Shown piece by piece: positions 27,880 to 62,318 of a stretch of 64,000 nt of DNA (its first letter is position 1; each line of letters opens with the position of its first letter). The notes beneath the pieces are model-generated. The model saw only the letters and a program-made list of their open reading frames with translations. It was not told the DNA's origin and did not search any database. The stretch lies in the NCBI RefSeq assembly GCF_056746865.1, contig NZ_CM163382.1, one strand, 5' to 3'. Position numbers and translations under genes: made by a program.

Positions 27880-27894
27880 TTACCTTTCAGGTAA
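27880..27894. promoter_or_regulatory. operator-like inverted repeat TTACC-TTTCA-GGTAA upstream of the tail fiber gene
   Basis: Perfect 5-bp half-sites, 15-bp site identical to 44822-44836. Confidence 0.5.
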
Positions 27895-27956
27895 TTTGCA
27901 AAACGTGCTGGATAGCAAACAAATTATTTGCTACTGTATAAATATACAGTTATTGC

Positions 27957-28229
27957 ATGGAGAAGATTAAGATGCAGCAGTATCACTATCCACTGGAAGA
28001 CGGATTTACCGAAAGGATTCACACGCCGGGAGGCGTCAGGTCACTGGTGGAGGGATCGCACTTGATGAAATTACTCCGGGATCTCGATAAGGATGGATTT
28101 AATGTCGATGGCCCACTTGCCGAACTGACTGCACTGATTAACTACGTCACCAGCTCACAGATGTCTATGCGGGATCTGCAAACACATCTCGACTATTGTG
28201 CCGAACAATTACGAAAACAAACCCGGTAA
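27957..28229 (+). CDS. hypothetical small protein (moron candidate)
   Basis: 90 aa (85 aa from the second ATG at 27972, which has a GGAGAAG Shine-Dalgarno); opposite strand to all neighbouring late genes; followed by a hairpin at 28237-28252. Confidence 0.5.
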   Translation: MEKIKMQQYHYPLEDGFTERIHTPGGVRSLVEGSHLMKLLRDLDKDGFNVDGPLAELTALINYVTSSQMSMRDLQTHLDYCAEQLRKQTR

Positions 28230-28236
28230 ATTTAAA

Positions 28237-28252
28237 GGCCGCAAGAGCGGCC
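28237..28252. terminator. hairpin GGCCGC-aaga-GCGGCC between convergent genes, probably a bidirectional terminator
   Basis: Perfect 6-bp stem, then the GTGACATGTCAC palindrome and a T-run. Confidence 0.5.
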
Positions 28253-28261
28253 TGTGACATG

Positions 28262-28558
28262 TCACGCTCTTTTTCTGAATGATAGCCATTCGAAAAATGA
28301 TGACATTCCACCGCAGACAATAGCAAAGATGATCCCACCAAAGAAGAGAAGGCCAGCCTGCCACCACTCCCACCGCCATACATCCACAGCGCCAACCATA
28401 CCAACAATCGCTCCAACAAATGGAATATAGCTCACGATGAAAGCAATGGGGGCTGCAATTATCCAGTGCAATCCCCACCATGATTCAAGCCCAGCCATAA
28501 TTGCTGCCAACTGAAAAAGACCAACGACGATATAAACAATGAATCCTATAGCTTGCAT
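28262..28558 (-). CDS. small polytopic membrane protein, unknown function
   Basis: 98 aa with 3 hydrophobic helices and several Trp residues. Confidence 0.55.
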   Translation of the reverse strand: MQAIGFIVYIVVGLFQLAAIMAGLESWWGLHWIIAAPIAFIVSYIPFVGAIVGMVGAVDVWRWEWWQAGLLFFGGIIFAIVCGGMSSFFEWLSFRKRA

Positions 28559-28570
28559 GTAGTCACCTAT

Positions 28571-28744
28571 TTACCCAGTAAAAATCAGAGGCCTCCCCTC
28601 AATAAGGCTTGCAACAAGAACTATTCCCTGCACAACAAAGATGAACCAGCAAATAGCTTGAGTCTGAGGGTTAAGAAAATATTTGTAGCGGTCAATAAAT
28701 AACAACCCACCAGAAATTATCACACTCAAAATAATTAAAAACAC
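28571..28744 (-). CDS. small membrane protein, unknown function (below the ORF-track size cutoff)
   Basis: 57 aa from a GTG start preceded by AAGGAAG; two hydrophobic helices; lies between the 824-aa virion protein and the 98-aa membrane protein. Confidence 0.35.
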   Translation of the reverse strand: MFLIILSVIISGGLLFIDRYKYFLNPQTQAICWFIFVVQGIVLVASLIEGRPLIFTG

Positions 28745-28753
28745 AACACTTCC

Positions 28754-31228
28754 TTATTGCGGAGTGACATCCTGAGGTCGCCACCAGTATGTCTGGTTAA
28801 ACTCTTTCTTCGAACGTTGCTCCATTTTACGCAAATAGCCTGGTGAAAAATACTCCTGCATCTGGTTAAAGATCATATGATCGAGAGCCGCCTTTAAGTA
28901 CCAGAGATTCGCACCTGGCATCAAACCTTTCCCCAGCTTCACCAGATCACCACCAGTCTGCTCACTCTTCCCTTCCACAGCATTTAACGGTATGCCCTGA
29001 GCAATCTTCACTACGTCATCAACCAGACCAGCTACCGGGCCAAGCATCGACGCCAGCGCGCCGCTTCCGTACCTAGTGTGATCTGACAATAAAAAGTCAC
29101 CGTAAAGGCCAAGACCACCACCTTTCAGTAGAGCACCAAGCCAAAATTTAGCAGCATCTTCTCCTGTCATCTCGCGAGGATTACGACCAGACGCAAGGTC
29201 GTTAAGTTGCTGCGACAAAGCGCCAAGAATGGTCGTACTGGCAATAAACGTCGCAATATATGCCGCACGCCCACCAGCAGACGGCATACCCATAGCGCGT
29301 GACCAGTGACGCATAACCACCGAGATAGGGAACGATTTAAACAGGAAAACACTTCTCGTTAATTCACCTTTCCATGTTCCACGCTGAATACCAGAACCGG
29401 TTATCAGTTGCTCACGTGCTCCCGGTGTAATAACAGCCATATCAACTTCTTCAGTTACGGCACCGAGCAGTTTACGCATTGCCTCAAATTTCACGCGTTC
29501 AGGCTCACCAAGATGTTTAACTGCTGAATCAGGGATACGCATAATGCTTTCCGGTGTCAGCATCGTATTATTGCCGTTCCCCCAGTCCTCCTGTTGCGCC
29601 AGCTTCCATACGCTCCAGTCTGTGTCAGTAATCCCTTTGCTTTTCAGGATACGAAAATCAGAATCATCGAGGCTACGAAGGTCTGGTGTCCGTGACACTA
29701 CTTCTCCCAGGCTTCCCATCATGGTTACGCCATAGGCGCGCTTGTGCGCATCTGACCATGCTGTAAGCCCACTGGCACGCATTACCGCCGTTGCAGCCCA
29801 ACGAGACACAGACGGCCCCATATTATCCATCGCCCAGCGGTTAACGCTGCCAAGTAGAGATTCCATCGCCAGACCAGCGCGGCGCGCCCGCGCAAGTTCT
29901 GTACGGTTCGTTGGGTCCATAGCTTCAAGCTGGTTGCGGAATAACTGGTTCATTGGAAGGTTGGTAACCTTCGCAGACAGATACATGGTTCCAAGATCAG
30001 AGAACGATGACAGCAACGCGGATCCGAGTCTGCTGGCAACCAGCCAGTTGCGGATATTGTCAGACCATCGCGCGATGTGCGGATTCGCTACAGGCTGTGT
30101 CTTTCCGGAAATAAAATTGTACAGATTCTCTGTGTTGTTCGCCAGCCGCTCGACTTTACCGGTTTTACTCGGGTTAGCTGTTGCCGTTTCTGCCTTCACC
30201 TGATCAAGAAGAGAGCGGAAAACATGATCGGGGTTTGGGCCATATGTTTCCACCAGTGCAATATCTTTACTGATACCTTCAAGGTGACCGACCATGATTT
30301 CCCATAGAGAGCGATCGCCATAAAGTTGCTGATATTGCAGATAGGAATCTGCATCTTTGAAATGTATCTGTCGTGATGCATTACCACGGTTAGCACGTGC
30401 GCCGGAAATTCGCATTCCGGTATCAGTAAGCTTATTCAGCCCACCAGTAGCGATCGTGTTATAAGCCTCTCCAAGAAATGCAGACAACTCGGCATCGTTC
30501 ATCAGTTGTCCATCGGCTCGGGTATAATATTTGCGATCCAGCTTACCTATAACATCGCTAACCCATTTATCTTTTGATACCGCCCCAACCTTTTCCATAG
30601 AATGATGTTGAGGGATCCCCCAGTTTTCGAGATAGCCAATGTCCCCACCAGCATCATTAAACCGGCGGCGCAGCAGCTCTGTAACTTCTCTCCACGCCTT
30701 AGCACCTTTTCTTGCTTTAGCATTGCCAGTATTTTGCCCCCGCATTTCATATACCAGGTCACGTACGCCCGCTTCATCTTCAAACAGACCAAAAAAGCGA
30801 GGATCAACTGCTTCGAATGCCTCCTGCAATTGACTCAATGCATAATCACGGGTGGCTTTTGTTCTGGATTCAACAGAGAGGAAATTCGATTTACCGTCTG
30901 CATTAAAAGCAATAGTACGGTTAAGAGCGCCAAGTTTCCCATCAGCCCCTTGATAGCTATTGATAAATTTATCCAATCTCTGACGTGCGGCTATAGTGAG
31001 GGCCACACGACGTTTCTTTAATGCCGCTTCTCGCTGTAATTCTTCAGATGCCAATTGTGCTGCACGATACAACCGTTCTGATTCGGAAAGTTGTCGCCAC
31101 GACATCGGGTCATCACGAGCAATGGAGCGCATATTTCGATAAATGCGGTCTTCAATGTTCTGTATTTCTCGCGCCGTTAACGTGCGCTGCGCCGCCTGCT
31201 GGACCGCTTGTATACATTCCTGTCTCAT
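28754..31228 (-). CDS. large virion-associated protein (internal virion / ejection protein candidate)
   Basis: 824 aa; placement within the structural gene block. Confidence 0.5.
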   Translation of the reverse strand: MRQECIQAVQQAAQRTLTAREIQNIEDRIYRNMRSIARDDPMSWRQLSESERLYRAAQLASEELQREAALKKRRVALTIAARQRLDKFINSYQGADGKLGALNRTIAFNADGKSNFLSVESRTKATRDYALSQLQEAFEAVDPRFFGLFEDEAGVRDLVYEMRGQNTGNAKARKGAKAWREVTELLRRRFNDAGGDIGYLENWGIPQHHSMEKVGAVSKDKWVSDVIGKLDRKYYTRADGQLMNDAELSAFLGEAYNTIATGGLNKLTDTGMRISGARANRGNASRQIHFKDADSYLQYQQLYGDRSLWEIMVGHLEGISKDIALVETYGPNPDHVFRSLLDQVKAETATANPSKTGKVERLANNTENLYNFISGKTQPVANPHIARWSDNIRNWLVASRLGSALLSSFSDLGTMYLSAKVTNLPMNQLFRNQLEAMDPTNRTELARARRAGLAMESLLGSVNRWAMDNMGPSVSRWAATAVMRASGLTAWSDAHKRAYGVTMMGSLGEVVSRTPDLRSLDDSDFRILKSKGITDTDWSVWKLAQQEDWGNGNNTMLTPESIMRIPDSAVKHLGEPERVKFEAMRKLLGAVTEEVDMAVITPGAREQLITGSGIQRGTWKGELTRSVFLFKSFPISVVMRHWSRAMGMPSAGGRAAYIATFIASTTILGALSQQLNDLASGRNPREMTGEDAAKFWLGALLKGGGLGLYGDFLLSDHTRYGSGALASMLGPVAGLVDDVVKIAQGIPLNAVEGKSEQTGGDLVKLGKGLMPGANLWYLKAALDHMIFNQMQEYFSPGYLRKMEQRSKKEFNQTYWWRPQDVTPQ

Positions 31229-31233
31229 TTAAT

Positions 31234-33036
31234 TTAACCTCTCAAGAAACACGCCACAGCAACATCAAACAGGCTGGAATCCTGTATTGCCTGCTCACTT
31301 TCCCTGTTCGCTTCATCCAGTACTTCACGCGCACTGCGCGATTGTGGATTACCATCATCATCCAGCACGGTGATTATCATGTCAGGTGATTCAAGCAGCG
31401 AGTCTTCAGCTATGCGCAGATCAATATCTCCTGCCTGATCTGACATCATTTTTTGTTCTGCCTGTTGCAATATTTTATCAGGCTCAAAAGGAGCTACTTC
31501 GTCTGGCGTCCTGACCTCTGCTGTTTTATAGAATGAAACAGCCTGAGCATTAAGTTCACTTTCTGCCTGCTGTCTCCGAGCCAGTTCTGCTCGAGCTTCA
31601 AAAAACTGACCGCCAGGCTCGTGCGGTGCCAACGCGTTACGGGAAAATTCCAGGCGTTCTTGTGCCTGCCGGATTCGTTGATCAATATCGCGAAGTCTGG
31701 CCTGTTTATCTGATCGAGCACGAGACAAAGCTTTACCGCTACCGGTTGGCTCTTCTGCAAGAATTTGTGCACGCTGTTCAGTGAGATTTTCAATAATTCG
31801 TTGGCTATTAGCGATTTCAGACTGGTAAACCTGTCTATCTCCACGCGGCAAAAGCTGCGCGGCCTGTTCTTCAAGCAACCGATTTTCTATAGCGCGCGCC
31901 GTTACTCCATCATCTACAGATGACAGAGCCTCATTAACTGCCTGAGACAGCAGACTCTTGCGCCCAGGAATTTCACTGAAAGATGCAGACTCAACAATGC
32001 TGGCAACGTCTACAGGTCTCCCCTGGCTAACATCAGACATAGCTTTTCGCAGAGCCTGAATGTGAGAATTGCGCGAAAGCACGTTGATCGGCACGCCGGG
32101 CGCAATATCAATTTCAGCATGATGAGCGGCATTCGCCGCCAGTGCAGCATCGATATCAACTGGTGAAAAATTTGGTGCGTTTGTAGACTCGCCGCGAGAG
32201 TTAATAAATCTGCCGACACCACCAAACGCCACCCCAAGAACAGCATCAATAGCAATTGCCTGTCGATCCAACACATCATACTGGTTAGCCATTTCGCTAT
32301 AGCCACCATCACGAAGTGTTTTTGCAGTAAGCCCACGCTGTGCCATACCGAACGCAATATTTGTACCTGCGGCATAGGCAATATCTGGCGTTGCACGTAC
32401 TGCTGTTGCTGCGGCGCGTCGCACTGAACTCTCACCCGTCCGCGCAAGCTGAGCCGCCACACCTTCCGCCAGCGCACCACCAGCACGTAACCCGAGGCTC
32501 ATAGGGATCAGCGTTCCGGCACCAGCAGTAATGCCCTGCACTAATCCCGCTTCCTGCGCCGTCCTGAAATCAACACCCTGTGCTGTCAGCCGTTCAAACT
32601 CAGAAAAACCCTGTAGCGAAGTTACCGCCGCTGCACCTCCGACAGGACCACCGAGCGTTGTACCGACAACAGCCTGCCCGCCCATATCGAACAACCCATA
32701 AAGAACCTGCCCGGCGGTTCCAGTTGTCGCGGCATCAGGCGTCAGCCGCTTAACCTGCTGCTCTGCTAGTTTTCTCTGCTCGGCAATGTATGAAACTGAA
32801 GTATCATTGAGCGAGGTGTTTTCGTTAACAAACTGAGCAATCGGGGATACGATTTTATCCATCCCTGCCCATAGCAACTGATCTGGCTTTGCCACCAGCC
32901 CGGAGTACAAACCAGACAATGCCGCTCCTACAGCATTGTCGAAAAAACCAACATCGCTGTTAAAGCCAGCTGGATTTGATGCTGCTTCGTCAAGCTGCTG
33001 ATTCTGGTTTACTGGATTAAGGCCAAAGTAACTCAT
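31234..33036 (-). CDS. virion-associated protein (internal core / ejection protein candidate)
   Basis: 600 aa; Ala/Gly-rich central region; translationally coupled to its neighbours. Confidence 0.45.
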   Translation of the reverse strand: MSYFGLNPVNQNQQLDEAASNPAGFNSDVGFFDNAVGAALSGLYSGLVAKPDQLLWAGMDKIVSPIAQFVNENTSLNDTSVSYIAEQRKLAEQQVKRLTPDAATTGTAGQVLYGLFDMGGQAVVGTTLGGPVGGAAAVTSLQGFSEFERLTAQGVDFRTAQEAGLVQGITAGAGTLIPMSLGLRAGGALAEGVAAQLARTGESSVRRAAATAVRATPDIAYAAGTNIAFGMAQRGLTAKTLRDGGYSEMANQYDVLDRQAIAIDAVLGVAFGGVGRFINSRGESTNAPNFSPVDIDAALAANAAHHAEIDIAPGVPINVLSRNSHIQALRKAMSDVSQGRPVDVASIVESASFSEIPGRKSLLSQAVNEALSSVDDGVTARAIENRLLEEQAAQLLPRGDRQVYQSEIANSQRIIENLTEQRAQILAEEPTGSGKALSRARSDKQARLRDIDQRIRQAQERLEFSRNALAPHEPGGQFFEARAELARRQQAESELNAQAVSFYKTAEVRTPDEVAPFEPDKILQQAEQKMMSDQAGDIDLRIAEDSLLESPDMIITVLDDDGNPQSRSAREVLDEANRESEQAIQDSSLFDVAVACFLRG

Positions 33037-35546: not shown

Positions 35547-36091
35547 TATAATCCTCCGGGTAATCTGGTTCCTGCTGCTGCCCCGATTGGCGCAGGAGTG
35601 CTTTGAGTAAACGGACTCCACGTCCCACCAAACATCTGGTACGCACCGTATGCCTTCAGAGGCGCAGTGAGCAATGTTGTTGCTGCTCCCACATTCCCCT
35701 GTTTACGGGCTGAACTGGCTTCTGCTTTATAGTTGGCAGCCTGAACCTGATAACCGTAAGCCTCGCGTTGCGCGTTATTCACCGTCGTCAGCGAATCAAG
35801 AGCGCCAAACTGGGCAGTGTCGCCAAATATATCCAGCGCGTTACCTGTAGATAAATCAGCGCCGGTAGCCCCCATTGTCGCCGCCTGTGTACCAAGCCGC
35901 TGTCGGGTCTCTCTGCGTCGTTGCTCAGCTTCAGCGTTACCTCTGTTTATTGCATCATTTGCCTGAGATGTGGCTATATCTGCGTTCGCTTCTGCAACCT
36001 TCGAGGCATACTTTCCCTGTTGGTACTGGGTGTATGCCTGAATGCCACTCATGGCGAGCATTGCGCCACCAGCAATAACCGGATCGCACAT
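35546..36091 (-). CDS. internal virion protein (T7 gp14-like size and composition)
   Basis: 181 aa, Ala/Gln-rich. Confidence 0.4.
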   Translation of the reverse strand: MCDPVIAGGAMLAMSGIQAYTQYQQGKYASKVAEANADIATSQANDAINRGNAEAEQRRRETRQRLGTQAATMGATGADLSTGNALDIFGDTAQFGALDSLTTVNNAQREAYGYQVQAANYKAEASSARKQGNVGAATTLLTAPLKAYGAYQMFGGTWSPFTQSTPAPIGAAAGTRLPGGL

Positions 36092-44732: not shown

Positions 44733-44821
44733 ATCAATGACTCCGTACGCAATTAAATTATTACCAATTTAACCACATATGATTTATTTATCGTAGGTAG
44801 TTGACATTTAACGCACAAATT

Positions 44822-44836
44822 ATTACCTTTCAGGTA
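44822..44836. promoter_or_regulatory. operator-like inverted repeat TTACC-TTTCA-GGTAA upstream of the portal/head gene block
   Basis: Identical to the site at 27880; preceded by the shared TTACC-N5-AACCACATATG module. Confidence 0.5.
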
Positions 44837-45159
44837 ACCAAAGAGTTCATTCCGGTTACTAACCTGACTGGCTTGTCGTTAAATTGAACAGGTGGAGTGA
44901 GCTTTTATTTTGAGCAGTACGGCGTATGGCACATGCGCCGATAGCGGTCTGGATACGTTTAAGGGGCACCCTCCCTTGCTCGGGCAAACGAACCAGGTAG
45001 CCGGAATGTGCAAGTCGAGCGGTTTTATTCCGCGCACGGGGATTCACCATCCCGGCGATTCGGTGTGACGCCTCGGAAGAGACGAGGGTACAACGATGAG
45101 AGCATTTATGGAGCCGCGACAAAGTGTGGCGCCTTAACAGGCTAAGTGCTCTCAGCGTT

Positions 45160-45236
45160 GTGGCATTAGCTCAGCTGGACAGAGCAACCGCCTTCTAAGC
45201 GGTTGGTCGCAGGTTCGAATCCTGCATGCCACGCCA
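45160..45236 (+). tRNA. tRNA-Arg, anticodon UCU (reads AGA), prophage-encoded
   Basis: Manual cloverleaf: acceptor GTGGCAT/ATGCCAC, D-stem GCTC/GAGC, anticodon stem ACCGC/GCGGT with loop CTTCTAA, T-arm GCAGG-TTCGAAT-CCTGC, discriminator G and CCA end. Confidence 0.85.
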
Positions 45237-45279: not shown

Positions 45280-45321
45280 GGCGGTGATGGTTTCCCTTGA
45301 AGGACTATCACCGCCCTTTTT
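45280..45321 (+). terminator. rho-independent terminator downstream of the tRNA
   Basis: GGCGGTGAT...ATCACCGCC stem followed by CTTTTT. Confidence 0.55.
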
Positions 45322-47374: not shown

Positions 47375-47967
47375 TGATTACCATCCTGACGTTCTTTGAG
47401 TCGCTTCCTGGCTGCCGCTATGCGATCAGCAATTGTCACATTCACATTAACATCCAGTCGTTCTTTGAATGCGTTGACGTCGACGTGCTTACCAATCAGT
47501 TCGAGGTTCTTCACCTTGTCAGGCCATTTAATTTTTTTGAGGATTGTCTCTATCGAATCCTCGTTCATGTTCATGATGGTCGATGACAGATCAAAGCCGC
47601 TAAGCGTAGTGCGCCAGATTTTCGGCCACTCGCGGATTGGCTTAAGGCTCCCATCGTCGTTGAGGATATCAATCACGTCCATCTGGTCGATCTCCACCAG
47701 GCGCATGAGAACGTAATCAGCACTGACGCGCATTCGTTTGTTGCGCTCCTCCATCAACTCGGCAATCCGTTTCTGAATGCGTTCATCGCGCATCATGACA
47801 CTGGCTTTAACTGCCGCTGTATTTGGGGAGAATCCTGCATTAATCGCAGCCTGAGTCTGGTTTTCAGGCGTTTTGATGTATGACTGGCAATAAGCCTCCT
47901 GCATTGCTGTTAGTGGCTTAAATTGCGTTGATTTGCGTTTATAGGCTTTAGGTTCAGCAGGCATCAT
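47371..47967 (-). CDS. terminase small subunit
   Basis: About 198 aa from the ATG at 47967 (the ORF track extends to 48045 through a repeat-encoded TITTTVTITT segment); basic N-terminal DNA-binding region. Confidence 0.65.
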   Translation of the reverse strand: MMPAEPKAYKRKSTQFKPLTAMQEAYCQSYIKTPENQTQAAINAGFSPNTAAVKASVMMRDERIQKRIAELMEERNKRMRVSADYVLMRLVEIDQMDVIDILNDDGSLKPIREWPKIWRTTLSGFDLSSTIMNMNEDSIETILKKIKWPDKVKNLELIGKHVDVNAFKERLDVNVNVTIADRIAAARKRLKERQDGNQ

Positions 47968-48041
47968 AACCACCGTGGTAATAGTTACCGTTGTGGTAAT
48001 AGTAACATGCAAAATAAAGCCGCCATAGTTGGCGGCAGTAT

Positions 48042-48271: not shown

Positions 48272-48613
48272 TCACACTATTAATTTCGTTTCATGCCAGC
48301 CTTTAGTCACCCAGCATTGTGAGTCACCATTACACGGACATGAATTAACTGGAACTCTCTCGCCGCACTTACCGCAACGTTTTCTACTGATCGATTTTAT
48401 ACGCCCGCGCACGCGTGCATCATCCTGGCGGATCAGTAACGCTATATACTCACCAAATTCGTAAGGCGCACGCCCGGGGCGACGCGCGGCACAGTTACGC
48501 TCAAGCATTTCAATTTCCTGAGCATCAAGCACAATCTCCAGCTTACGTACACCGGATGCAGCTTGTCTGGCTCTCTGAGCGGCTTTGCGCTCTGCTGCTG
48601 ATTTAGCCATCAA
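48272..48613 (-). CDS. hypothetical protein with C-terminal Cys-rich zinc-ribbon-like motif
   Basis: 113 aa; basic N-terminus and CGKCGERVPVNSCPCNGDSQC. Confidence 0.45.
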   Translation of the reverse strand: MMAKSAAERKAAQRARQAASGVRKLEIVLDAQEIEMLERNCAARRPGRAPYEFGEYIALLIRQDDARVRGRIKSISRKRCGKCGERVPVNSCPCNGDSQCWVTKGWHETKLIV

Positions 48614-50279: not shown

Positions 50280-50280
50280 A

Positions 50281-51706: not shown

Positions 51707-52054
51707 TCAGAACTCTTCGATGTTCCAGCCACCACCTGCTTTCTTTGGTTTAACCGTTACCCCGATGATTCGGAACGGATACTGATCTGCGGCGACTTTG
51801 GTTTTCACCCTGGCGTCGTCGGTCCAGAATCCCCCTTTCACTTCGTGCAGCTCCATCTCGCCGGTGGCGAGCATCACAGCAAAATCGGGCGTATAGAACG
51901 TGTTGTCAGCTAACCGCAGCTTGATACCCTCAAATCGATACCAGACGATTTCTCCTGCACGTTTACGCATCTCAAGGTGCTGGCAATACGCAGATTCTGT
52001 TTTGTTCATCTGGCCTGTTTTGAGTCGACCAAGAGCCTGTATCTGTTTTCTCAT
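51707..52054 (-). CDS. small PD-(D/E)xK-like protein (DUF1064-like)
   Basis: 115 aa; D...ELHEVKG motif. Confidence 0.45.
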   Translation of the reverse strand: MRKQIQALGRLKTGQMNKTESAYCQHLEMRKRAGEIVWYRFEGIKLRLADNTFYTPDFAVMLATGEMELHEVKGGFWTDDARVKTKVAADQYPFRIIGVTVKPKKAGGGWNIEEF

Positions 52055-52057
52055 GAT

Positions 52058-52072
52058 TTACCTCTGAGGTAA
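52058..52072. promoter_or_regulatory. operator-like inverted repeat TTACC-TCTGA-GGTAA
   Basis: Intergenic, between the P-like gene and the downstream early genes. Confidence 0.45.
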
Positions 52073-52119
52073 TTAAAAACCACATAAGACACGAAATCAA
52101 TAGAGTTTAGAATATTTTG

Positions 52120-52134
52120 TTACCCAACAGGTAA
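52120..52134. promoter_or_regulatory. operator-like inverted repeat TTACC-CAACA-GGTAA
   Basis: Second site in the same intergenic region. Confidence 0.45.
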
Positions 52135-52171
52135 CTATCAAGACATAAAAAAATGCGCTATCGCGCTGGTA

Positions 52172-53943: not shown

Positions 53944-54021
53944 TTTTTCCGCCCCTTTTTGTTATTGATATTGGCTATTTTGCACAATTGGAAAATTTGA
54001 TCAACCAGATTTGGTTTTTTA

Positions 54022-54036
54022 TTACCTTTGAGGTAC
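54022..54036. promoter_or_regulatory. operator-like repeat TTACC-TTTGA-GGTAC (one mismatch)
   Basis: Downstream of the cro-like gene. Confidence 0.35.
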
Positions 54037-54091
54037 GAATAGATATGAAAAGACCGCCGGGTGGCGGTCTACAGAGGGTTGTAGCTGGATA

Positions 54092-54322
54092 TCATGAGTA
54101 GAAGAAGTATGCCAGTTCTGCTTTTGAGCGCAGCCATTGTCTTGTTTTACAGGCTTTAAAAAGCCCATTCATCAATACCTTACCTGGCATTTTGCGCTTG
54201 CCTGTTAAGTGAGTCTGGATATAGTGACTCGTCGTTCCGGCTTCCTGTGCGAAGGCTTCACGCTCATCCGGAGTAAGTGCAAGCCAGTGCTTTTTGAAAT
54301 CGAAATGTCCGTTATCGCTCAT
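54092..54322 (-). CDS. Cro-like HTH regulator
   Basis: 76 aa, divergent from the cI-like gene, with operator-like repeats in the shared intergenic region. Confidence 0.55.
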   Translation of the reverse strand: MSDNGHFDFKKHWLALTPDEREAFAQEAGTTSHYIQTHLTGKRKMPGKVLMNGLFKACKTRQWLRSKAELAYFFYS

Positions 54323-54357
54323 AGCTATTGCCTGATATTTATTTCAGATAATAAATA

Positions 54358-54372
54358 TTCACCCATAAGGTA
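54358..54372. promoter_or_regulatory. operator-like repeat TCACC-CATAA-GGTAA in the cI/cro intergenic region
   Basis: One of three adjacent sites between the divergent regulators. Confidence 0.5.
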
Positions 54373-54388
54373 ACAAAAATCAAGGATG

Positions 54389-54403
54389 GTTACCTATGAG
54401 GTG
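54389..54403. promoter_or_regulatory. operator-like repeat TTACC-TATGA-GGTGC in the cI/cro intergenic region
   Basis: Abuts the next site. Confidence 0.45.
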
Positions 54404-54405
54404 CA

Positions 54406-54420
54406 TTTACCTGTTGGGTA
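54406..54420. promoter_or_regulatory. operator-like inverted repeat TTACC-TGTTG-GGTAA in the cI/cro intergenic region
   Basis: Perfect half-sites. Confidence 0.5.
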
Positions 54421-54476
54421 ATATTGCTTTAAATTGAATCATCTACTGATTCATATATGAGGCGATTTTCCAGAAA

Positions 54477-55061
54477 ATGAAAAGTATCCAGGACGTCCGC
54501 AGGCAAAATCTCAACGACTTGATCGACCGTGAATTCAATGGTGTTCAGACGCGGATGGCAGAAAAACTTGGAACTCAGGCAAATCTGGTAAACCGCTGGG
54601 CTCTTGGCAAGAAGGTTATCGGCGACCAGGTTGCGCGAAAAATTGAAGCTGCCGCCAATAAACCCCGTAACTGGCTTGATATCGATCGCTCGCTTTCTCA
54701 GGAAGGTTTTCAGCCTGTCGGCCCAAGCGACATTGGTCAGCTGGCGGCTCACAACCTGGAACGCTGGATGAGCGAAAGCCGCGACCTTTCAACACAGGGA
54801 AAACTTCACCGCGCATCCGGCGTCGCCCAGGTGACAATCAGCCGCCTGTTAAACAATGAGGTCAGCGTTTCCATTTCCACCCTGGAGAATGTTGCATCCG
54901 CATTCGGGCGTCACGGATATGAACTACTGATTCACCCGCACGACCCTGCGACTATCAACTATGACCGCTCACGCTACGCATTGTTACCCGAAACCGAGAA
55001 AGCAAAGATCGAAAGTTACATTGAATTTGTCATCAACCAGAACGAAAAAAGCAAACAATAA
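54477..55061 (+). CDS. CI-like repressor with two XRE-type HTH domains
   Basis: 194 aa; two HTH-like segments (QTRMAEKLGTQANLVNRWALGKK and RASGVAQVTISRLLNNE); divergent from the cro-like gene. Confidence 0.6.
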   Translation: MKSIQDVRRQNLNDLIDREFNGVQTRMAEKLGTQANLVNRWALGKKVIGDQVARKIEAAANKPRNWLDIDRSLSQEGFQPVGPSDIGQLAAHNLERWMSESRDLSTQGKLHRASGVAQVTISRLLNNEVSVSISTLENVASAFGRHGYELLIHPHDPATINYDRSRYALLPETEKAKIESYIEFVINQNEKSKQ

Positions 55062-55108
55062 AACTATATTTTTCAGTAAGTAAGCCGCCTCATGGCGGCT
55101 TTTTTATT

Positions 55109-55123
55109 GCCTATACTATTACC
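55109..55123. promoter_or_regulatory. operator-like inverted repeat TTACC-TAATG-GGTAA
   Basis: Between the cI-like gene and the recombination operon. Confidence 0.45.
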
Positions 55124-55180
55124 TAATGGGTAATTTTTTTAACTCATATCTATTGACATCAAACCAAATACGCATAATTA

Positions 55181-55195
55181 TTACCTAAACGGTAA
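55181..55195. promoter_or_regulatory. operator-like inverted repeat TTACC-TAAAC-GGTAA overlapping a promoter-like region
   Basis: TTGACA at 55153-55158 lies 22 bp upstream; the site precedes the 55373 operon. Confidence 0.45.
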
Positions 55196-55372: not shown

Positions 55373-56407
55373 ATGAGTGAATTATCAATCATCGAAATCA
55401 CACCAGACATGGCACCAAGAATTTACGTTGAAAAAGGGCTGGAAAAGTTTCTCGAGCAGATCCGTGAAGGTGTTAATGAAGTGCCTGACATTAGCACAGA
55501 CAAAGGCAGAAAGCGCATTGCATCTCTGGCTGCGAAGGTTTCAAGAAGTAAAACAGCGGTAGAAAAACCAGGACGTGATTATCTGAAACGCCTGAAAGAA
55601 CAGCCGAAAGTAGTTGAAGCAGAGTTACGACGCTTCGTAACCGAATGCGATCGGCTTCGTGATGAAGTACGCCGCCCACTCACCGAGTGGGAAAATGCTG
55701 AGAAATTACGCACTGAAGCACTGCAACAACGCCTGACAAATTTGCGAGCACTAGCTGACGTGATCGATCTCTCCGGAAACTACTTGCCATCATCTGATAT
55801 TCAGGAACGAATTCAAGAGGCTAAATCAGTAGCACTTGATGAAAGTTGGCAGGAGTACGCAGCAGAAGCTGGAGTAGCCAAGGATTCAACCATCAAGAAA
55901 CTGGAAGAATCACTCGCAGTAGCTCAAAAACGCGAGCATGAAGCCGCTGAGCTGGAGCGACTTCGCAAAGAAGCGGAGGAAAAAGCGCGCATTGAGCGAG
56001 AAGAGAATATCCGACGGGAAGCTGCTGAACAGGCCAGGCTCGAAGCTGAACAAAAAGCGAAAGCTGAAATTGAGGCTGCGGCACGCCTGGCGGCGGAAGA
56101 AAAAGCACGTGCTGAAGTAGCAGAACGTCAGCGAATTGAAGCAGAGCAGCGTGCACGACGCGAAAAAGAAGAAGCCGTTGCCGAGGAACGCCGACGCCAA
56201 GAGGCGGCAGAAAAAGCCCGCCTTGACGAACAGAAGCGTATCGCCGACGAAGAAGCGCGCCGAGCTGCAGATAAAGAGCATCGCCGTACCGTTAACCGCA
56301 GAGTAATCGCAGATCTGATAGCCCAAGGCATTCACGAAGAATTCGCGCAGAAAGCAATGTTGGCTATCGCTGGCGGCAAAGTGCAGGACGCGTATATCAA
56401 ATATTGA
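55373..56407 (+). CDS. coiled-coil protein with TolA-like Glu/Ala/Lys/Arg-rich repeats
   Basis: 344 aa; long low-complexity helical region (EAEQKAKAEIEAAARLAAEEKARAE...); first gene of the recombination operon. Confidence 0.5.
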   Translation: MSELSIIEITPDMAPRIYVEKGLEKFLEQIREGVNEVPDISTDKGRKRIASLAAKVSRSKTAVEKPGRDYLKRLKEQPKVVEAELRRFVTECDRLRDEVRRPLTEWENAEKLRTEALQQRLTNLRALADVIDLSGNYLPSSDIQERIQEAKSVALDESWQEYAAEAGVAKDSTIKKLEESLAVAQKREHEAAELERLRKEAEEKARIEREENIRREAAEQARLEAEQKAKAEIEAAARLAAEEKARAEVAERQRIEAEQRARREKEEAVAEERRRQEAAEKARLDEQKRIADEEARRAADKEHRRTVNRRVIADLIAQGIHEEFAQKAMLAIAGGKVQDAYIKY

Positions 56408-56408
56408 G

Positions 56409-56714
56409 GTGGGTATGAACGTTAATCAGCAGAAAAATCTTCAAAAAATCATGCTGGCATTCGACAAGGACTACCGCCTGTCAGAACAGCTATATGACCG
56501 ACAAGTTGAACTGATCGATAGCATCCGGCTTCATCAACTGGCCTCAACTTTTGACGCTGTAACAGGCAAAGGAGTTCGCCAGGAAGTACTGGAGGCTGCT
56601 AAAGACAGCCCTGAGTTCGAAGAACTGATGGATGCCTACCGGCGAGAGGCAATGGCAATTATCGCCCGCTGGGATCTGGCGGATCGGATTGATGGGCAGA
56701 GGGAAGCGGCATGA
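56409..56714 (+). CDS. hypothetical protein
   Basis: 101 aa, between the coiled-coil gene and the exonuclease gene. Confidence 0.45.
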   Translation: MGMNVNQQKNLQKIMLAFDKDYRLSEQLYDRQVELIDSIRLHQLASTFDAVTGKGVRQEVLEAAKDSPEFEELMDAYRREAMAIIARWDLADRIDGQREAA

Positions 56715-57532: not shown

Positions 57533-58410
57533 GCAATGATATCGCAATCACATCACAACCAGGCGCAACTGTAGGTACTGCTGCGGCAATCTTCAGCCCG
57601 GAGGGCATGAATCAACTGGTGCGTTTCGCGGAGTTGATGTCACAAAGCAAAGCGACTGTACCGAAACATCTTGAAGGCAAACCTGCCGATTGTCTGGCGG
57701 TGACCATGCAGGCGGCACAGTGGGGAATGAACCCTTTCGCCGTGGCGCAGAAAACGCATGTGGTAAACGGAACGTTAGGCTACGAAGCACAGTTGGTAAA
57801 CGCGGTCGTATCCTCTTCCAGCCTGCTAGCGACACGCCTGAATTATCGCTGGAGCGGTGACTGGTCGAATGTTAACGGCAAAACAGATAAATCACCGAAT
57901 CTGACGGTAACTGTGTCAGCAGTTCTTAAAGGAGAAGCAGAACCCCGTGAGCTTACCATCAGTATGGCGCAAGCCGGAGTGCGTAACTCTCCATTGTGGG
58001 AACAGGATCCGCGCCAGCAGCTTGCCTATCTTTGCACGAAACGATGGGCTCGCCTGCACGCTCCTGATGTGCTTCTCGGTGTTTACACCCCTGACGAATT
58101 ACAGGAAACGGCACCGCGCGTTGAGCGAGACATTACTCCGCAAACGACTACTGCTGCGGGAATGAACAGTCTGATCAACGCTAAACCAGTGAAAAAGCAT
58201 GATGAGCAAACGCGTAAAGCGGATAGCCGTGATCCAGAAGAAATGCTGATGGCCTTTACCAGCGCAGCGATGAATTACAGCACTGTCTCCGAACTGGATA
58301 AGGCTTACAAATACATTGCACAAAAACTTTCAGATGATGACGAACTGCTGGCAAAAGCCACCGACGTTTACAGCGTTCGTCGGGAAGAATTAAACGAAAC
58401 ATCTATGTAA
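57529..58410 (+). CDS. RecT-family single-strand annealing recombinase
   Basis: 293 aa; paired with the upstream exonuclease. Confidence 0.65.
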   Translation: MSNDIAITSQPGATVGTAAAIFSPEGMNQLVRFAELMSQSKATVPKHLEGKPADCLAVTMQAAQWGMNPFAVAQKTHVVNGTLGYEAQLVNAVVSSSSLLATRLNYRWSGDWSNVNGKTDKSPNLTVTVSAVLKGEAEPRELTISMAQAGVRNSPLWEQDPRQQLAYLCTKRWARLHAPDVLLGVYTPDELQETAPRVERDITPQTTTAAGMNSLINAKPVKKHDEQTRKADSRDPEEMLMAFTSAAMNYSTVSELDKAYKYIAQKLSDDDELLAKATDVYSVRREELNETSM

Positions 58411-58459
58411 CCACCACCGCGGCGCCACACGCGCCGCACTGCAACCAAGAGAGGTATTT

Positions 58460-58708
58460 ATGAAAGGTGCATTAGGTAAGAAGGAACTCCTGGCGGTGGT
58501 GCCACTGTCATGGAGCACTATCGACCGTATGGAGCGCGCAGGGGAATTTCCTAAACGCTGGTATATCACTGACAAACGCTGCGCATGGAACCGTGACGAA
58601 GTTGAGCGTTGGCTTGATGAACGTCAGGCAGCAAGCCCGGCAGAGTTCCAGGGTAAAAAACCTCCTGTTCAGCAACGTGTATATCGTCCCGTGAGCAACG
58701 CTGCATGA
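58460..58708 (+). CDS. AlpA/Xis-like small DNA-binding protein (excisionase candidate)
   Basis: 82 aa; AlpA-like HTH region (LAVVPLSWSTIDRMERAGEFPKRWYI). Confidence 0.55.
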   Translation: MKGALGKKELLAVVPLSWSTIDRMERAGEFPKRWYITDKRCAWNRDEVERWLDERQAASPAEFQGKKPPVQQRVYRPVSNAA

Positions 58709-58817
58709 GTGCGCTGCTAAGGCACTGGATCAAATGGTCAGGATGGTACTTATTCCTGGCCTCTGTTTCAGCATGGCTTTATCTGCTGGCATTAATTTTC
58801 AGAGAGGGTTGGATTAA

Positions 58818-59117
58818 GTGAGAAAGTTAAGCCGACTTGAAAAATATCACATGAATAAGGTTTCAATGCGCAGTCCGTCAAAGATTGTCGCCGTTACTCC
58901 TGCGGCGATAGAGATCGAAAAACGCGCGATTGAAAGAGAGAAAAAAGGGCAGTTCCGCATTGCCGCTCACCTTTGGCTTCAGTGTATGGATGTTGCTTCT
59001 GGTGATGTTGAGCGTGCAAGGATCGCGGTTCGCAGGGACCAATGTATCACAAAAGGTAACGGCCTTCGCCGTGGAGACTATAGCGGTATAGGATGTTGCG
59101 GGGTGGTTTATGACTAA
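58818..59117 (+). CDS. hypothetical protein, translationally coupled to the methyltransferase
   Basis: 99 aa; its stop overlaps the methyltransferase start. Confidence 0.4.
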   Translation: MRKLSRLEKYHMNKVSMRSPSKIVAVTPAAIEIEKRAIEREKKGQFRIAAHLWLQCMDVASGDVERARIAVRRDQCITKGNGLRRGDYSGIGCCGVVYD

Positions 59118-59760
59118 GAAATACACACTAATCTATGCAGATCCACCCTGGGTATACCGGGACAAAGCCGCAGATGGTAATCGCGGTGCCGGTTTTAAAT
59201 ATCCGGTTATGAGTGTGATGGATATCTGCCGCCTTCCTGTGTGGGATTTGGCCGATGAAAACTGTCTGTTGGCCATGTGGTGGGTGCCAACACAACCACT
59301 CGAAGCACTAAAAGTTGTTGAAGCCTGGGGGTTCCGTCTGATGACCATGAAGGGCTTCACGTGGATAAAATGTGGTAGTCGACAACCAGATAAACTGGTT
59401 ATGGGTATGGGACACATGACTCGCGCCAATAGTGAAGATTGCCTGTTTGCAGTTAAGGGAAAACTACCTCCGCGCATTAATGCAGGGATCGTTCAGTCAT
59501 TTACCGCACCGCGGCTTGAGCATTCAAGAAAACCAGATGTCGTTCGTGAAAAACTTGTGCAATTGTTAGGCGATGTTTCTCGCATTGAACTGTTCGCCCG
59601 CCAGACGTCTCATGGCTTCGATGTTTGGGGTAATCAGTGCGAAGACCCGGCAGTGCAACTACACCCCGGATACGCGTTGGATATTGGCGGATTAACAAAT
59701 GCATTCAGCAATGCTCCGCTGTCACCAACAGACAACCAGGGACGGGAGCGTGCAGCATGA
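59110..59760 (+). CDS. MT-A70 family N6-adenine DNA methyltransferase (orphan)
   Basis: 216 aa; catalytic DPPW motif (LIYADPPWVY); no adjacent restriction endonuclease gene recognised. Confidence 0.75.
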   Translation: MTKKYTLIYADPPWVYRDKAADGNRGAGFKYPVMSVMDICRLPVWDLADENCLLAMWWVPTQPLEALKVVEAWGFRLMTMKGFTWIKCGSRQPDKLVMGMGHMTRANSEDCLFAVKGKLPPRINAGIVQSFTAPRLEHSRKPDVVREKLVQLLGDVSRIELFARQTSHGFDVWGNQCEDPAVQLHPGYALDIGGLTNAFSNAPLSPTDNQGRERAA

Positions 59761-60005
59761 AGCAGATTATGGTTGCACACAACGGCGTCAGGTTTGAAGT
59801 CGTCATGGTTTTGACTAAGTTCCACAATGATGAGGTATTGCACAGAAAAGAAACTGTAACTTACCGTTATAAACACCGCAGTTCAGCTGTTAGAAAATTA
59901 CGGAAGATTGCGGAAGAACTAAAAAATGATCCTCATCGTGTTATTGAGGTAAAAGGCAACCCATATAAAATCAAAACTTCAGTGGAGCTAAGACATATGC
60001 AATAA
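59757..60005 (+). CDS. hypothetical small protein
   Basis: 82 aa from the ATG at 59757, overlapping the methyltransferase stop (ATGA). Confidence 0.4.
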   Translation: MKQIMVAHNGVRFEVVMVLTKFHNDEVLHRKETVTYRYKHRSSAVRKLRKIAEELKNDPHRVIEVKGNPYKIKTSVELRHMQ

Positions 60006-60329
60006 AATCACGCCTGACGAATCGCGATTATCTCGCTATTGGTATTGCAGAGATTGCTGGACTCAATGGCGCATGATTTGACAATGCCGCCAGAGCTATC
60101 GCATACTGACCGCACTAGAAAACAAACAGCGGTCATCCGCACCCGATAGCTTTGCGGCTTTTTTATGCCTGCAATCTGGCATAGTCACATCCGTACAAAG
60201 GTCGGGTGGAGAGGCGTAATACAACACCCGAAAGGGGAATATGCCCGGAGCTACTGTTTGTGCTCTAGTTGACACCCGATCACCAGCTACTAACTGGTTT
60301 TCGTAACTAAAAACAAACAGGAGGTCATC

Positions 60330-60980
60330 ATGACCAGTCAACTCATCCCCGTATTCAACGGCACTATATCCAACGAAACCGCTCTTCTCGTTAATGCCCG
60401 TGATTTACACACTTTCCTCGATGTGGGTAAGCGATTTGCTTCGTGGATTGTCGAACGAATTGCTGAATATGGTTTCGTTGAAAATCAAGACTTTATGATT
60501 ATTTCCCAAGTTCGGGAAAAAATAGGCAGAGGCCGTCCTGCAAAAGACTACCACCTCACCCTCGATACAGCCAAAGAGCTGGCGATGGTCGAGCGTAATG
60601 AAAAAGGTCGTCAGGTACGACGCTACTTCATTGAATGCGAGAAACGTTTAAGACAACAAGAAACAAAAGTGGAGAAGGTCTTGTCAGGCTTCATGCCCGC
60701 CATTATGGAGGCGATCAAGCTGGAAGACAAAAAAGAATACAGTGCCCCACTGAAGCCCGGCTACCGCAGCCTGATTCACTCGCCGTCTGGTGTTCTCGGC
60801 CTGACGGAGCACTCACTGCTGATGAATCTGCTGAACCAGTTACAGGACGACGGGCACGACGTATCGGGCGCGGCGGCGGAGCTGACCACCATGTTCTGCT
60901 ACATCGTCGGTGTGAGCAAATGCCTGCGTGATATCCAGACTCACGCGGAGTACATCAACGACAAGGCAGGATTCTTCTGA
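60330..60980 (+). CDS. antirepressor-like protein (Ant/Bro-N-type N-terminal domain), function uncertain
   Basis: 216 aa; strong Shine-Dalgarno (AGGAGG) and TTGACA at 60259-60264; N-terminal region resembles phage antirepressor families. Confidence 0.4.
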   Translation: MTSQLIPVFNGTISNETALLVNARDLHTFLDVGKRFASWIVERIAEYGFVENQDFMIISQVREKIGRGRPAKDYHLTLDTAKELAMVERNEKGRQVRRYFIECEKRLRQQETKVEKVLSGFMPAIMEAIKLEDKKEYSAPLKPGYRSLIHSPSGVLGLTEHSLLMNLLNQLQDDGHDVSGAAAELTTMFCYIVGVSKCLRDIQTHAEYINDKAGFF

Positions 60981-61011
60981 CGGCGGCGGCACAGGGATGT
61001 GCCGGGCAAAA

Positions 61012-62262
61012 TTATTCCCCCGCCATCCACTTCTCAAACTTCGACGGGGAGAACGGAATCAGATCCGTATGCTCCCCGTTAATCCAGGAATCAATCATAT
61101 CGGACCACTGCTGCAACATGTAGGCGCGCTGTCTGGCGTATTCCGCTTTGTTATATACGGCGCGCACACCTTTCTGCTCATGTGCCAGAGCCTTTTCAAT
61201 CCAGTCTGAAGGATAACCAGCCTCATGCAACAACGTACTGGCTGTACGGCGCATATCGTGTACGGTGAAGTCCTGAATATGCTCACCATCTTCATTTATT
61301 ATTTTCACCGTTCTGTCGATCAGAGAGTTCAGCGCGGCATTAGATAATGGCTTCCGGAAGTTGTAACGACCAGGAACCAGATATTCACTTCCACCAGCGC
61401 ACATCTGCAACCCAACCAATATATCCTGAGCCTGTTTAGGCAGGTAAATAACGTGCGCCCGGCTTCCCTTCATGCGGTCTGAAGGAATTGTCCATGTCCA
61501 TTTTTTAAAATCTATTTCGTCCCACGTTGCATTAGTGAATTCGCCTTTACGAACCATAGTGATAAGCACCAGCTTTAAAGCCATTTTCATAGTGCCCATA
61601 GCACCAATGGCATCCAGCGTGCGGAAGAACAGGCCAATTTCTTCTGGTGTCAGTGTTCGCTCTCGTGGTTTAAATATGGCGATAGACGAAGGTTTAATGT
61701 CAGCCGCAGGATTAAACAAACCATGACCACGGTCATTGGCGTGACGGTATACGCTACTGATGATCTCCCTGGCCTGCACTGCTGTTGCCCGGCCACCGCG
61801 TTCGACAATCCGGTCACACAAATCACGAACCATCGATGTGGTAATTTCAGCCATCATTTTATTGCCAAGAACCGGAAGTATGTCACGGTCGATCACCGCC
61901 TGTTTCATTGCGCGGGTACTGTCAGCCAGGATGACGTGTTTCATATAACTGTCGGTATGTACCGCAAACGTCTCGGCACCACGAATCTTTTTGATACCGT
62001 CACGTTTAGCCGCAGCCGGTGACTGGCCTGCTTTAAGCAGCTTCTTTGCAGCAATCAGTTCTTCTCGCGCTTCTGCCAGGCTGATACCGTCACGCCCATA
62101 CTGCCCGATTACCAGTGTTTCGCGGCGACCGTTGATACGGTAGTCATAGCGAAACGAGACCGTGCCTGACGTAAGCACAGCTACATACAGCCCGTCACGA
62201 TCGGAGACCTTGTACAGTTTGTCCTGCGGCTTGAGGTTTTTTAATTTTGTATCGGTAAGCAC
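61012..62262 (-). CDS. int: tyrosine integrase (P4-like, with N-terminal arm-binding domain)
   Basis: 416 aa; N-terminus MLTDTKLKNLKPQDKLYKVSDRDGLYVAV typical of arm-type DNA-binding domains; C-terminal catalytic region (HDMRRT...AHEQKGVRAVY); adjacent to the att repeat. Confidence 0.85.
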   Translation of the reverse strand: MLTDTKLKNLKPQDKLYKVSDRDGLYVAVLTSGTVSFRYDYRINGRRETLVIGQYGRDGISLAEAREELIAAKKLLKAGQSPAAAKRDGIKKIRGAETFAVHTDSYMKHVILADSTRAMKQAVIDRDILPVLGNKMMAEITTSMVRDLCDRIVERGGRATAVQAREIISSVYRHANDRGHGLFNPAADIKPSSIAIFKPRERTLTPEEIGLFFRTLDAIGAMGTMKMALKLVLITMVRKGEFTNATWDEIDFKKWTWTIPSDRMKGSRAHVIYLPKQAQDILVGLQMCAGGSEYLVPGRYNFRKPLSNAALNSLIDRTVKIINEDGEHIQDFTVHDMRRTASTLLHEAGYPSDWIEKALAHEQKGVRAVYNKAEYARQRAYMLQQWSDMIDSWINGEHTDLIPFSPSKFEKWMAGE

Positions 62263-62303
62263 AATTCACCCGTATAGAAACCATTTTCATGACGGTATGA
62301 GAG

Positions 62304-62318
62304 TATACCTTTAAGGTA
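62304..62318. promoter_or_regulatory. operator-like repeat ATACC-TTTAA-GGTAA upstream of the integrase gene
   Basis: About 42 bp upstream of the int start, between int and guaA. Confidence 0.4.

Follow-up and report, generated by a model that had tools for sequence, protein, structure and literature searches.

The window analyzed here (64,000 nucleotides of contig NZ_CM163382.1, RefSeq assembly GCF_056746865.1) contains a prophage in which one inverted repeat, TTACC-N5-GGTAA, recurs in front of many transcription units. Which protein reads this element, and what does it control? A sequence-only reading had counted at least 11 intergenic copies and proposed that a single DNA-binding protein, namely a CI-like protein with two helix-turn-helix (HTH) domains, Cro or an activator, directly controls late, replication and integration promoters. 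Our analysis indicates that the palindrome is very probably the operator of the prophage's Rep repressor, a tetrameric HTH protein of the SPC32H/ε15 type, and that the Cro-like partner probably shares the operators. It further appears likely that separately terminated units (PR/PRM, PL, nin-like, terS, head and tail-fiber/ant) are under the direct control of Rep and would be freed by a LexA-controlled antirepressor, Ant.

Number and placement of the palindrome

The motif TTACC-N5-GGTAA was scanned over the whole 64-kb window and compared with 100 shuffles. Eight exact copies (positions 27880, 44823, 47985, 52058, 52120, 54407, 55119 and 55181) were found against 0.03 expected, a number reached by none of the 100 shuffles; allowing up to one mismatch gave 16 copies against 1.08 expected. 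The prophage holds 13 copies in total: the eight exact ones, four with one mismatch (47967, 54022, 54359 and 62305) and one with two mismatches (54390), which brings OR to three sites. All 13 are intergenic in a prophage that is 90.4% coding. They represent 12-13 operator sites at eight loci, spread over 34 kb, and the palindrome has the consensus ATTACCT-N3-AGGTAAT. The repetition, the intergenic placement and the enrichment over shuffled DNA claimed in the sequence-only reading are thus borne out. Its coordinates are mostly right, with slips at 55109 (55119), 44822 (44823) and 62304 (62305), and its list contains the core sites but leaves off the terS tandem pair at 47967/47985 and the site at 54022.

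Equal frequency in host or coding DNA, which had been raised as a ground for doubt, was not observed: host flanks pooled from five loci (44.6 kb in all) contain no exact copy, compared with eight in the 39.3-kb prophage, and none lies in a gene. A position weight matrix (PWM) trained on four diverged relatives only, with the window and its near-identical kin left out, returned 11 prophage sites of at least 15.5 bits, every one intergenic, as are the copies at 47967 and 54390. Eight of the high-scoring sites lie beyond 54.3-55.2 kb, that is, the operators are not confined to OR and OL. Intragenic, stoperator-like sites were sought with the matrix across the prophage and none was found.

The sole host position with a comparable matrix score was 7739. 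The 24.7 kb of host DNA in the window carry three one-mismatch copies (4360, 7739 and 16881) against ~0.4 expected; read by eye, the copy at 7739 stands at an apparent host gene start (ATGACCAAACAGGTAAAA). These host copies probably arose by chance.

Conservation in relatives and the ε15 annotation

In the RefSeq record of ε15, features of the type 'protein_bind: repressor / lysogeny' stand at 12-27 (before terS), 2931-2947 (before the head block), 19895-19911 (ant/tail fiber), 32479-32632 (OL, three sites) and 35906-35922 (past the replication genes). All seven sites coincide base for base with TTACC-N5-GGTAA, and the window has syntenic copies. The record labels seven of at least 13 motif copies in ε15, with the OR sites unlabelled. 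The dispersed layout, including the late-gene sites, is already recognised in ε15 and attributed to the repressor, and the pattern is not new: the repetition of the palindrome is real, conserved and functional-looking, but known in kind. The GenBank record of SPC32H, a genome with 10 exact copies, has no binding-site features, and outside the primary ε15 and SPC32H papers no account of the dispersed sites was found in the literature searched.

In an unbiased de novo count of all 5+5 inverted repeats with spacers of 0-9 bp, (TTACC, N5) ranked first in the window, TL-2011b, phiV10, ε15, Tyrion, BUCT554 and a Klebsiella prophage (portal protein 60% identical), and also in four contigs picked for the most diverged Rep (Serratia, two of E. 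coli type and one metagenome). This top-ranked palindrome is common to 11 relatives from Escherichia, Salmonella, Enterobacter, Klebsiella, Serratia and metagenomes, down to a Rep identity of 43%, and it occupies the same syntenic places. The multi-site classes that recur are the OR triplet (spaced by 17 and 30/31 bp), the OL pair, a pair after the replication genes and a tandem pair touching the start of terS; single sites recur at two loci, the head block and ant/tail fiber, and most relatives have a further one ahead of the lysis cassette. Spacings between operators are quantised (62-63 bp, n=16; 17-18 bp, n=12; 48 bp, n=6). In the alignments the half-sites are invariant and the spacers and flanks are scrambled, which amounts to a phylogenetic footprint.

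The half-sites do not differ even where Rep identity between genomes is as low as 43-60% and the recognition helix is altered. Covariation was searched for by tblastn of portal and Rep against a phage collection and by a search of 5.8 billion proteins, from which the four contigs were taken; Rep variants with a changed recognition helix (NLVNRW, NLVSRW and NLISRW with a loop insertion) sit among unchanged TTACC-N5-GGTAA sites. Sodalis phiSG1 (portal 58% identical), considered as an informative relative, was discarded as a mosaic without Rep or motif.

Layouts vary locally. The nin-region pair has the 62-bp flanking layout in some lineages and an 18-bp tandem layout in others. Relatives carry extra exact operators before accessory Bro-N, Ant or Arc-type genes beside ant (TL-2011b 1165, 1258 and 2310; phiV10 20497; Tyrion 21393; KpST512 38862 and 39442), so that modules gained recently have also come under this operator. 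No accessory module of this type is present beside ant in the window.

Rep, Ant and the LexA box

The genes of the switch and the control element of ant are as follows.

54477 to 55061, + strand: rep, 194-aa repressor of the SPC32H/ε15 type (PDB 5D50_A, E=3.5e-42 over residues 1-190; 5D4Z, E=3.6e-20)
54092 to 54322, - strand: cro-like gene, 76 aa, divergent from rep (phrog_35, transcriptional repressor, E=5.6e-13)
27972 to 28229, + strand: ant, 85-aa antirepressor (PDB 5D50_E, 'Anti-repressor protein', E=1.6e-46), its ATG set by alignment
27934 to 27949, + strand: perfect LexA box CTGTATAAATATACAG over the predicted ant promoter, read from the sequence and kept in eight genomes

According to its PDB homologues, Rep is composed of an N-terminal HTH DNA-binding domain and a C-terminal tetramerisation/Ant-binding domain. 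A CI-like repressor had been correctly recognised here, but its second half, taken for another HTH, matches the tetramerisation/Ant-binding domain of 5D4Z and is no second DNA reader (PMC9986798). The protein is 99.5% identical to the phiV10 and ZX5 repressors and ~43% identical to Rep of ε15/SPC32H. No Peptidase_S24 autocleavage domain was detected in Rep or in 86 database homologues, which carry HTH Pfam families only. The fold of the C-terminal domain has been tied to DNA looping (PMC9986798), and the Rep tetramer binds palindromic DNA and is broken by Ant (PMC9638917). Overexpression of the ZX5 repressor abolished free phage and reduced holin and endolysin mRNA by >99.9% (PMC9782041).

The ant gene adjoins the tail-fiber gene, in the same place as ε15 gp19 and SPC32H ant, and the LexA box that is present on its predicted promoter lies between the operator at 27880 and the ant ATG. 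Every sequence-testable defining feature of the ε15/SPC32H-type Rep-Ant-LexA system was found in the prophage. Among the three proposed binders, the CI-like protein appears best backed by its homology to SPC32H Rep; we favour it because the sites stand at OR and OL positions, the ε15 record names the repressor, a tetramer fits the paired sites, and the ZX5 repressor has the effect described above.

Probable operators at the immunity, nin and terS promoters

At four loci the operators lie on promoters predicted from conservation. The palindromes are listed without strand.

54359 to 54373: OR site, one mismatch, in the spacer of the predicted PR (TTGATT 54378-54383, GAATAT 54355-54360, - strand)
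54390 to 54404: middle OR site, two mismatches
54407 to 54421: OR site adjoining rep, exact
55119 to 55133: distal OL operator, exact, directly after the rep terminator at 55082-55101
55181 to 55195: proximal OL operator, exact, 62 bp from the distal one, beginning at the last base of the -10
54022 to 54036: weak operator, one mismatch, just past the cro terminator at 54051-54070
52120 to 52134: distal nin-region operator, exact, syntenic with the ε15 'repressor' feature 35906-35922
52058 to 52072: proximal nin-region operator, exact, 62 bp from the distal one, spanning -10 to +1
52072 to 52100, - strand: predicted nin-region promoter, TTGATT-17-TTTAAT, hexamers conserved in eight genomes
47985 to 47999: terS operator 1, exact, syntenic with the ε15 'repressor' feature 12-27
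47967 to 47981: terS operator 2, one mismatch, 18-bp spacing to operator 1, its end 2 nt short of the terS ATG (47964)
47999 to 48007, - strand: predicted terS promoter with extended -10 TGTTACTAT, abutting operator 1; TGnTAnnAT is kept in every lineage
48019 to 48036, - strand: intrinsic terminator, predicted in the sequence upstream of the terS promoter

The three sites that had been noticed between the divergent cI-like and cro-like genes (54359, 54390 and 54407) form the OR triplet, and the two that follow the cI-like gene (55119 and 55181) form the OL pair, which accompanies a predicted PL of the sequence TTGACA-17-AATTAT at 55153-55181. The E. coli group, Tyrion and BUCT554 have a site of the 54022 type, which ε15, SPC32H and the Klebsiella prophage lack. 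This weak site is the operator that lies ahead of the replication genes; the pair at 52058/52120, formerly assigned to the replication region, is located after those genes and flanks the nin-like-region promoter. The latter is predicted, again from conservation, to drive 51707-52054 (resolvase-like) and the genes downstream, and a terminator-like hairpin lies nearby at 52147-52166. At terS, the lineages carry the -10-compatible variants TACTAT, TAGTAT, TAGAAT and TATGAT.

At PR, PL, the nin promoter and the terS promoter the operators thus overlap the conserved spacer, the -10 or the +1 of the predicted promoters. Such placements would correspond to the classical occlusion geometry of the textbooks.

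Sites at the head, tail-fiber/ant and int loci

The remaining sites are positioned differently with respect to the promoters.

27880 to 27894: exact operator between divergent ant and the tail-fiber gene (25373-27775, - strand), top PWM score of 27.3, syntenic with the ε15 'repressor' feature 19895-19911
27824 to 27850, - strand: tail-fiber promoter block CATATGTGGTTTTTCAGGTAATAGAAT, conserved in the alignments
44823 to 44837: exact operator between the head block (ATG 44732, - strand) and an opposite-strand tRNA-Arg unit, syntenic with the ε15 'repressor' feature 2931-2947
44752 to 44781, - strand: invariant head-promoter block CATATGTGGTTAAATTGGTAATAATTTAAT, comprising the second motif described below and a GGTAAT half-site
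44801 to 44829, + strand: predicted antisense promoter TTGACA-17-TACCTT, its -10 inside the operator at 44823
45160 to 45236, + strand: tRNA-Arg(TCT), downstream of the antisense promoter (ARAGORN and Rfam)
62305 to 62319: doubtful one-mismatch copy that precedes int by 43 bp and falls within the palindrome TGACGGTAT (62290-62298)...ATACCGTCA (62319-62327)

The operator at 27880 does lie upstream of the tail-fiber gene, as had been noted, but in the divergent ant/tail-fiber region and off the core promoters, at about -60 from the predicted ant start and about -75 from the predicted tail-fiber start. Similarly, the site assigned to the head block is ~90 bp 5' of the head ATG but overlaps a conserved promoter on the opposite strand: all 11 genomes compared have TTGACA exactly 16 nt from the head operator and a T at spacer base N2 (background 39%). 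The late-promoter half-site TGGTT-N5-GGTAA lies 62 bp from the head operator and was weighed as a possible further weak operator; the spacing of 50 bp at the tail fiber and the mismatched left half count against it.

The copy before int, which had been listed as a site of the integrase gene, is present with one mismatch, but its role is doubtful. It is imperfect (GGTAT) in all eight genomes, lies within a uniformly conserved attP arm and is nested in the larger palindrome TGACGGTAT-N20-ATACCGTCA (62290-62327), which is invariant in eight genomes; at the int-proximal spot the ε15 record places Int and RNase III features, not the repressor.

Downstream of the antisense promoter, a strong terminator (45280-45315, + strand) follows the tRNA-Arg(TCT). 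The 320 bp between this promoter and the tRNA carry a coding sequence on the other strand in the TL-2011b annotation. That open reading frame (ORF), 44859-45122, had no PHROG match, and the stretch may therefore be a non-coding leader.

A second motif at the late promoters

A second element, CATAT(G/A)(T/A)GGTT, is conserved at the promoters of the head, tail-fiber, lysis and nin units. Its orientation invariably follows that of transcription, and it stands just 5' of a -10-like hexamer, at a distance of 0-10 nt, and 29-41 bp downstream of a Rep operator.

44771 to 44781, 27840 to 27850, 52078 to 52088 and 25096 to 25120, - strand: copies of CATAT(G/A)(T/A)GGTT in the window; the counterparts lie at ~24740-24765 in phiV10 and ~24750-24775 in ε15

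In the lysis promoters of phiV10 and Tyrion its palindromic symmetry is perfect (AACCATATATGGTT). A late factor may bind this element.

The lysis cassette of the Klebsiella prophage, like that of the window, is not preceded by a Rep operator, and these are the two genomes without a divergent O-antigen conversion gene at this spot. In the window, the corresponding interval between tail fiber and lysis cassette (25060-25372) has no such gene, unlike phiV10 (oac), ε15, SPC32H, Tyrion and BUCT554, which also carry a Rep operator there.

Proposed action of Rep

If Rep is the ligand throughout, the prophage genome would be divided into separately terminated units, most of which start with a terminator followed by one or more operators and a promoter. 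In the lysogen, Rep would occupy all operators. At PR, PL and the nin and terS promoters it would block RNA polymerase through an operator placed over the spacer, the -10 or the +1, and a single tetramer could hold two operators where these form pairs 62 bp apart flanking a promoter or 17-18-bp tandems. Between the divergent promoters of the head and tail-fiber/ant loci, Rep would act from one operator at each locus. Upon DNA damage, LexA would leave the box on the ant promoter, Ant would be made and would bind the C-terminal domains of Rep, and Rep would then leave all operators together, so that the early, packaging and morphogenesis units are freed without an obligatory antitermination cascade.

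Several observations weigh against this proposal. The lysis promoter of the window has the second element and a TATGAT -10 but no Rep operator. The head and tail-fiber operators lie ~60-90 bp upstream of their promoters, in a non-occluding position. The transcript data for ZX5 fit direct and indirect repression alike. Cro is co-inherited with Rep and better conserved, so the two are inseparable as binders, and no relative with an altered operator was present among those searched, leaving no covariation of Rep and operator to compare. The second motif at the late promoters hints at an additional factor. With this motif at the late promoters and no operator at the lysis promoter, the evidence falls short of establishing that one protein is in sole control. 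Of the earlier proposal that one protein controls late, replication and integration promoters, one operator type before many units stands; the second late motif, the misplaced replication pair and the doubtful int site do not fit it.

Alternative binders and functions

An unlikely alternative is that the Cro-like protein, rather than Rep, is the ligand at the non-immunity sites and tunes down the early, nin and packaging promoters during lytic growth. Cro always accompanies the motif, and its HTH (AGTTSHYIQTHLTG-R/K-RKMPGK) is almost invariant between genomes; identities within the family range from 53-84% for Cro, compared with 52-88% for the N-terminal and 42-76% for the C-terminal domain of Rep, which makes Cro more conserved than either. 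In lambdoid phages, moreover, Cro and CI use common operators. On the other hand, the 62- and 18-bp pairs suit a tetramer, the silencing of packaging and morphogenesis units is a task of lysogeny, and the ε15 annotators give the sites to the repressor. The two assignments are non-exclusive, and Cro may bind in addition to Rep.

The non-immunity sites could instead serve Rep as stoperator-like roadblocks or chromosome-organising anchors, stopping read-through and bridging distant sites, which we regard as very unlikely. In Cluster A mycobacteriophages, dispersed repressor sites block elongation (PMC6550527, PMC9283540). Several sites of the window are directly 3' of terminators (48019-48036, 54051-54070 and 55082-55101), and the single head and tail-fiber sites are clear of co-directional core promoters. 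The sites are palindromic, however, none lies within a gene, and those at PL, nin, terS and PR overlap the conserved -10, spacer or +1.

The third alternative, that the palindrome at late promoters is merely operator-like and is bound by an activator, such as the PerC-like protein (58818-59117) or the ribbon-helix-helix/Cys-rich protein listed below, is highly improbable: the site is at about -60 to -90 at the head and tail-fiber loci, a typical activator position, the late promoters have poor -35 elements and no Q-like protein was found, but the late sites are indistinguishable from OR/OL operators by the matrix, the lysis promoter of the window manages without the site, CCATATnTGGTT is a better candidate for a late-factor site, and phages that have a gp49 homologue but no Rep (Pantoea AH07, 58% identical; N15, gp46, 35%) contain zero exact copies.

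48272 to 48613, - strand: gp49-like putative regulator just upstream of terS (phrog_536, E=6.7e-55)

The gp49-like protein is disfavoured as binder by this absence of the motif where it occurs without Rep. It holds the position that a Q-type antiterminator would take upstream of the late operon, with a generic PHROG label only ('transcriptional regulator'), and had no match in Pfam, NCBIfam or PDB. As in the sequence-only reading, no Q-like antiterminator was recognised, and N-like proteins were likewise not recognised in the window (PHROG, with Pfam, NCBIfam and PDB for the gene upstream of terS).

In its N-terminal segment the gp49-like protein resembles a ribbon-helix-helix (RKLEIVLDAQEIEMLERN), and its C-terminus is rich in Cys (CGKCG...CPCNGDSQC); its homologues occur in N15 (gp46) and in Yersinia, Vibrio and Pantoea phages.

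Comparison with known systems

The closest likeness is to ε15 and SPC32H (Uetakevirus), with which the prophage shares homologous Rep and Ant proteins, a 15-17-bp palindrome, syntenic sites, the LexA box at ant and the guaA att family. It differs from ε15 in having two OL sites instead of three, an extra weak site after cro and none before the lysis cassette.

As in lambda, rep and cro are divergent, OR has three sites, OL controls a recombination operon and operators lie over PR and PL. Unlike in lambda, operators occur in at least six places beyond the immunity region, and Rep lacks S24 autocleavage, induction being predicted to proceed via Ant and LexA. As with P1 C1, many scattered operons would be gated directly by one repressor, which a non-covalent antirepressor, not cleavage, inactivates. 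Access to the late genes of P1 is through the C1-controlled activator Lpa; no Lpa-like late activator was identified in the window. The 22 operators of C1 are dispersed over the P1 genome (PMC8546580) and are asymmetric 17-mers (ATTGCTCTAATAAATTT), whereas those of the window are palindromes that go with a tetrameric Rep of the XRE-type HTH. Cluster A mycobacteriophages such as L5 and Bxb1 similarly use many copies of one repressor site for global silencing across the prophage (PMC6550527, PMC9283540). Their stoperators are asymmetric, oriented with transcription and mostly off promoters, and the motif diverges with the repressor; the sites described here are symmetric, intergenic and promoter-proximal, and invariant over Rep proteins that are 43-100% identical.

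Prophage identity and neighbouring features

The prophage measures 39.3 kb and is bounded by att cores at 23131 and 62453.

23131 to 23147, - strand: att core repeat at the left prophage end, exact 17-mer ATTGAGTGGGAATGATT
62453 to 62469, - strand: att core repeat at the right prophage end, at the 3' end of guaA, second exact copy of ATTGAGTGGGAATGATT

The 17-mer is the attP/attB core given for phage ZX5 at the guaA 3' end (PMC9782041). In its regulatory half the prophage is 97-98% identical in DNA sequence to TL-2011b, HEMP4 and ZX5; the gene order is ε15-like and integration is at the guaA 3' end. Judged by these features, the prophage is an integrated Uetakevirus of the phiV10/TL-2011b/ε15 type.

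Relative to TL-2011b and phiV10, a 344-aa ORF (55373-56407, + strand; phrog_1376, function unknown) is inserted in the early-left operon. Genes of like size, compared by size and position alone, occupy this place in the Serratia and E. coli contigs. PADLOC returned no match for this ORF and none for four unassigned prophage ORFs. Two Rfam small RNAs were also found: a full-length match to the Hfq-binding STnc490 at 22945-23068 on the - strand (146 bits), on the host side of the left att core and ~60 bp away from it, and a match to sRNA-Xcc1 within the prophage at 60200-60289 on the + strand (64.8 bits; gathering score 53), flanked by the early-left genes and the methyltransferase gene.

Implications for ε15-like phages

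Three points go beyond what is known: a possible single-tier circuit, an operator specificity that would be frozen, and the second late-promoter motif. We tentatively raise the possibility, itself rather doubtful, that ε15-like phages use a single-tier circuit in which one tetrameric repressor sits on every early, packaging and morphogenesis sigma-70 promoter with no obligatory cascade, and in which the operator is frozen across at least six enterobacterial genera as Rep drifts to 43% identity. In such a circuit operator specificity would be frozen because it is wired into at least eight loci. If this is true, the whole family would be homoimmune at the level of the repressor, and superinfection exclusion would have diversified by other means, for example O-antigen conversion or Ant-Rep pairing. 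The constancy of the operator despite strong divergence of Rep is a small, testable evolutionary point.

A conspicuous palindrome scattered over a prophage, when met in genome scanning, most likely marks a repressor regulon with many sites; the one described here is already annotated in a reference record. More broadly, the findings bear on how a common prophage family of E. coli and Salmonella is silenced, which would be by a repressor at most promoters that is released through a LexA-controlled antirepressor, unlike a lambda-style cascade. Knowledge of this mode may help to predict how pathogenic E. coli prophages of the phiV10, TL-2011b and ZX5 types are induced, and to engineer such prophages.

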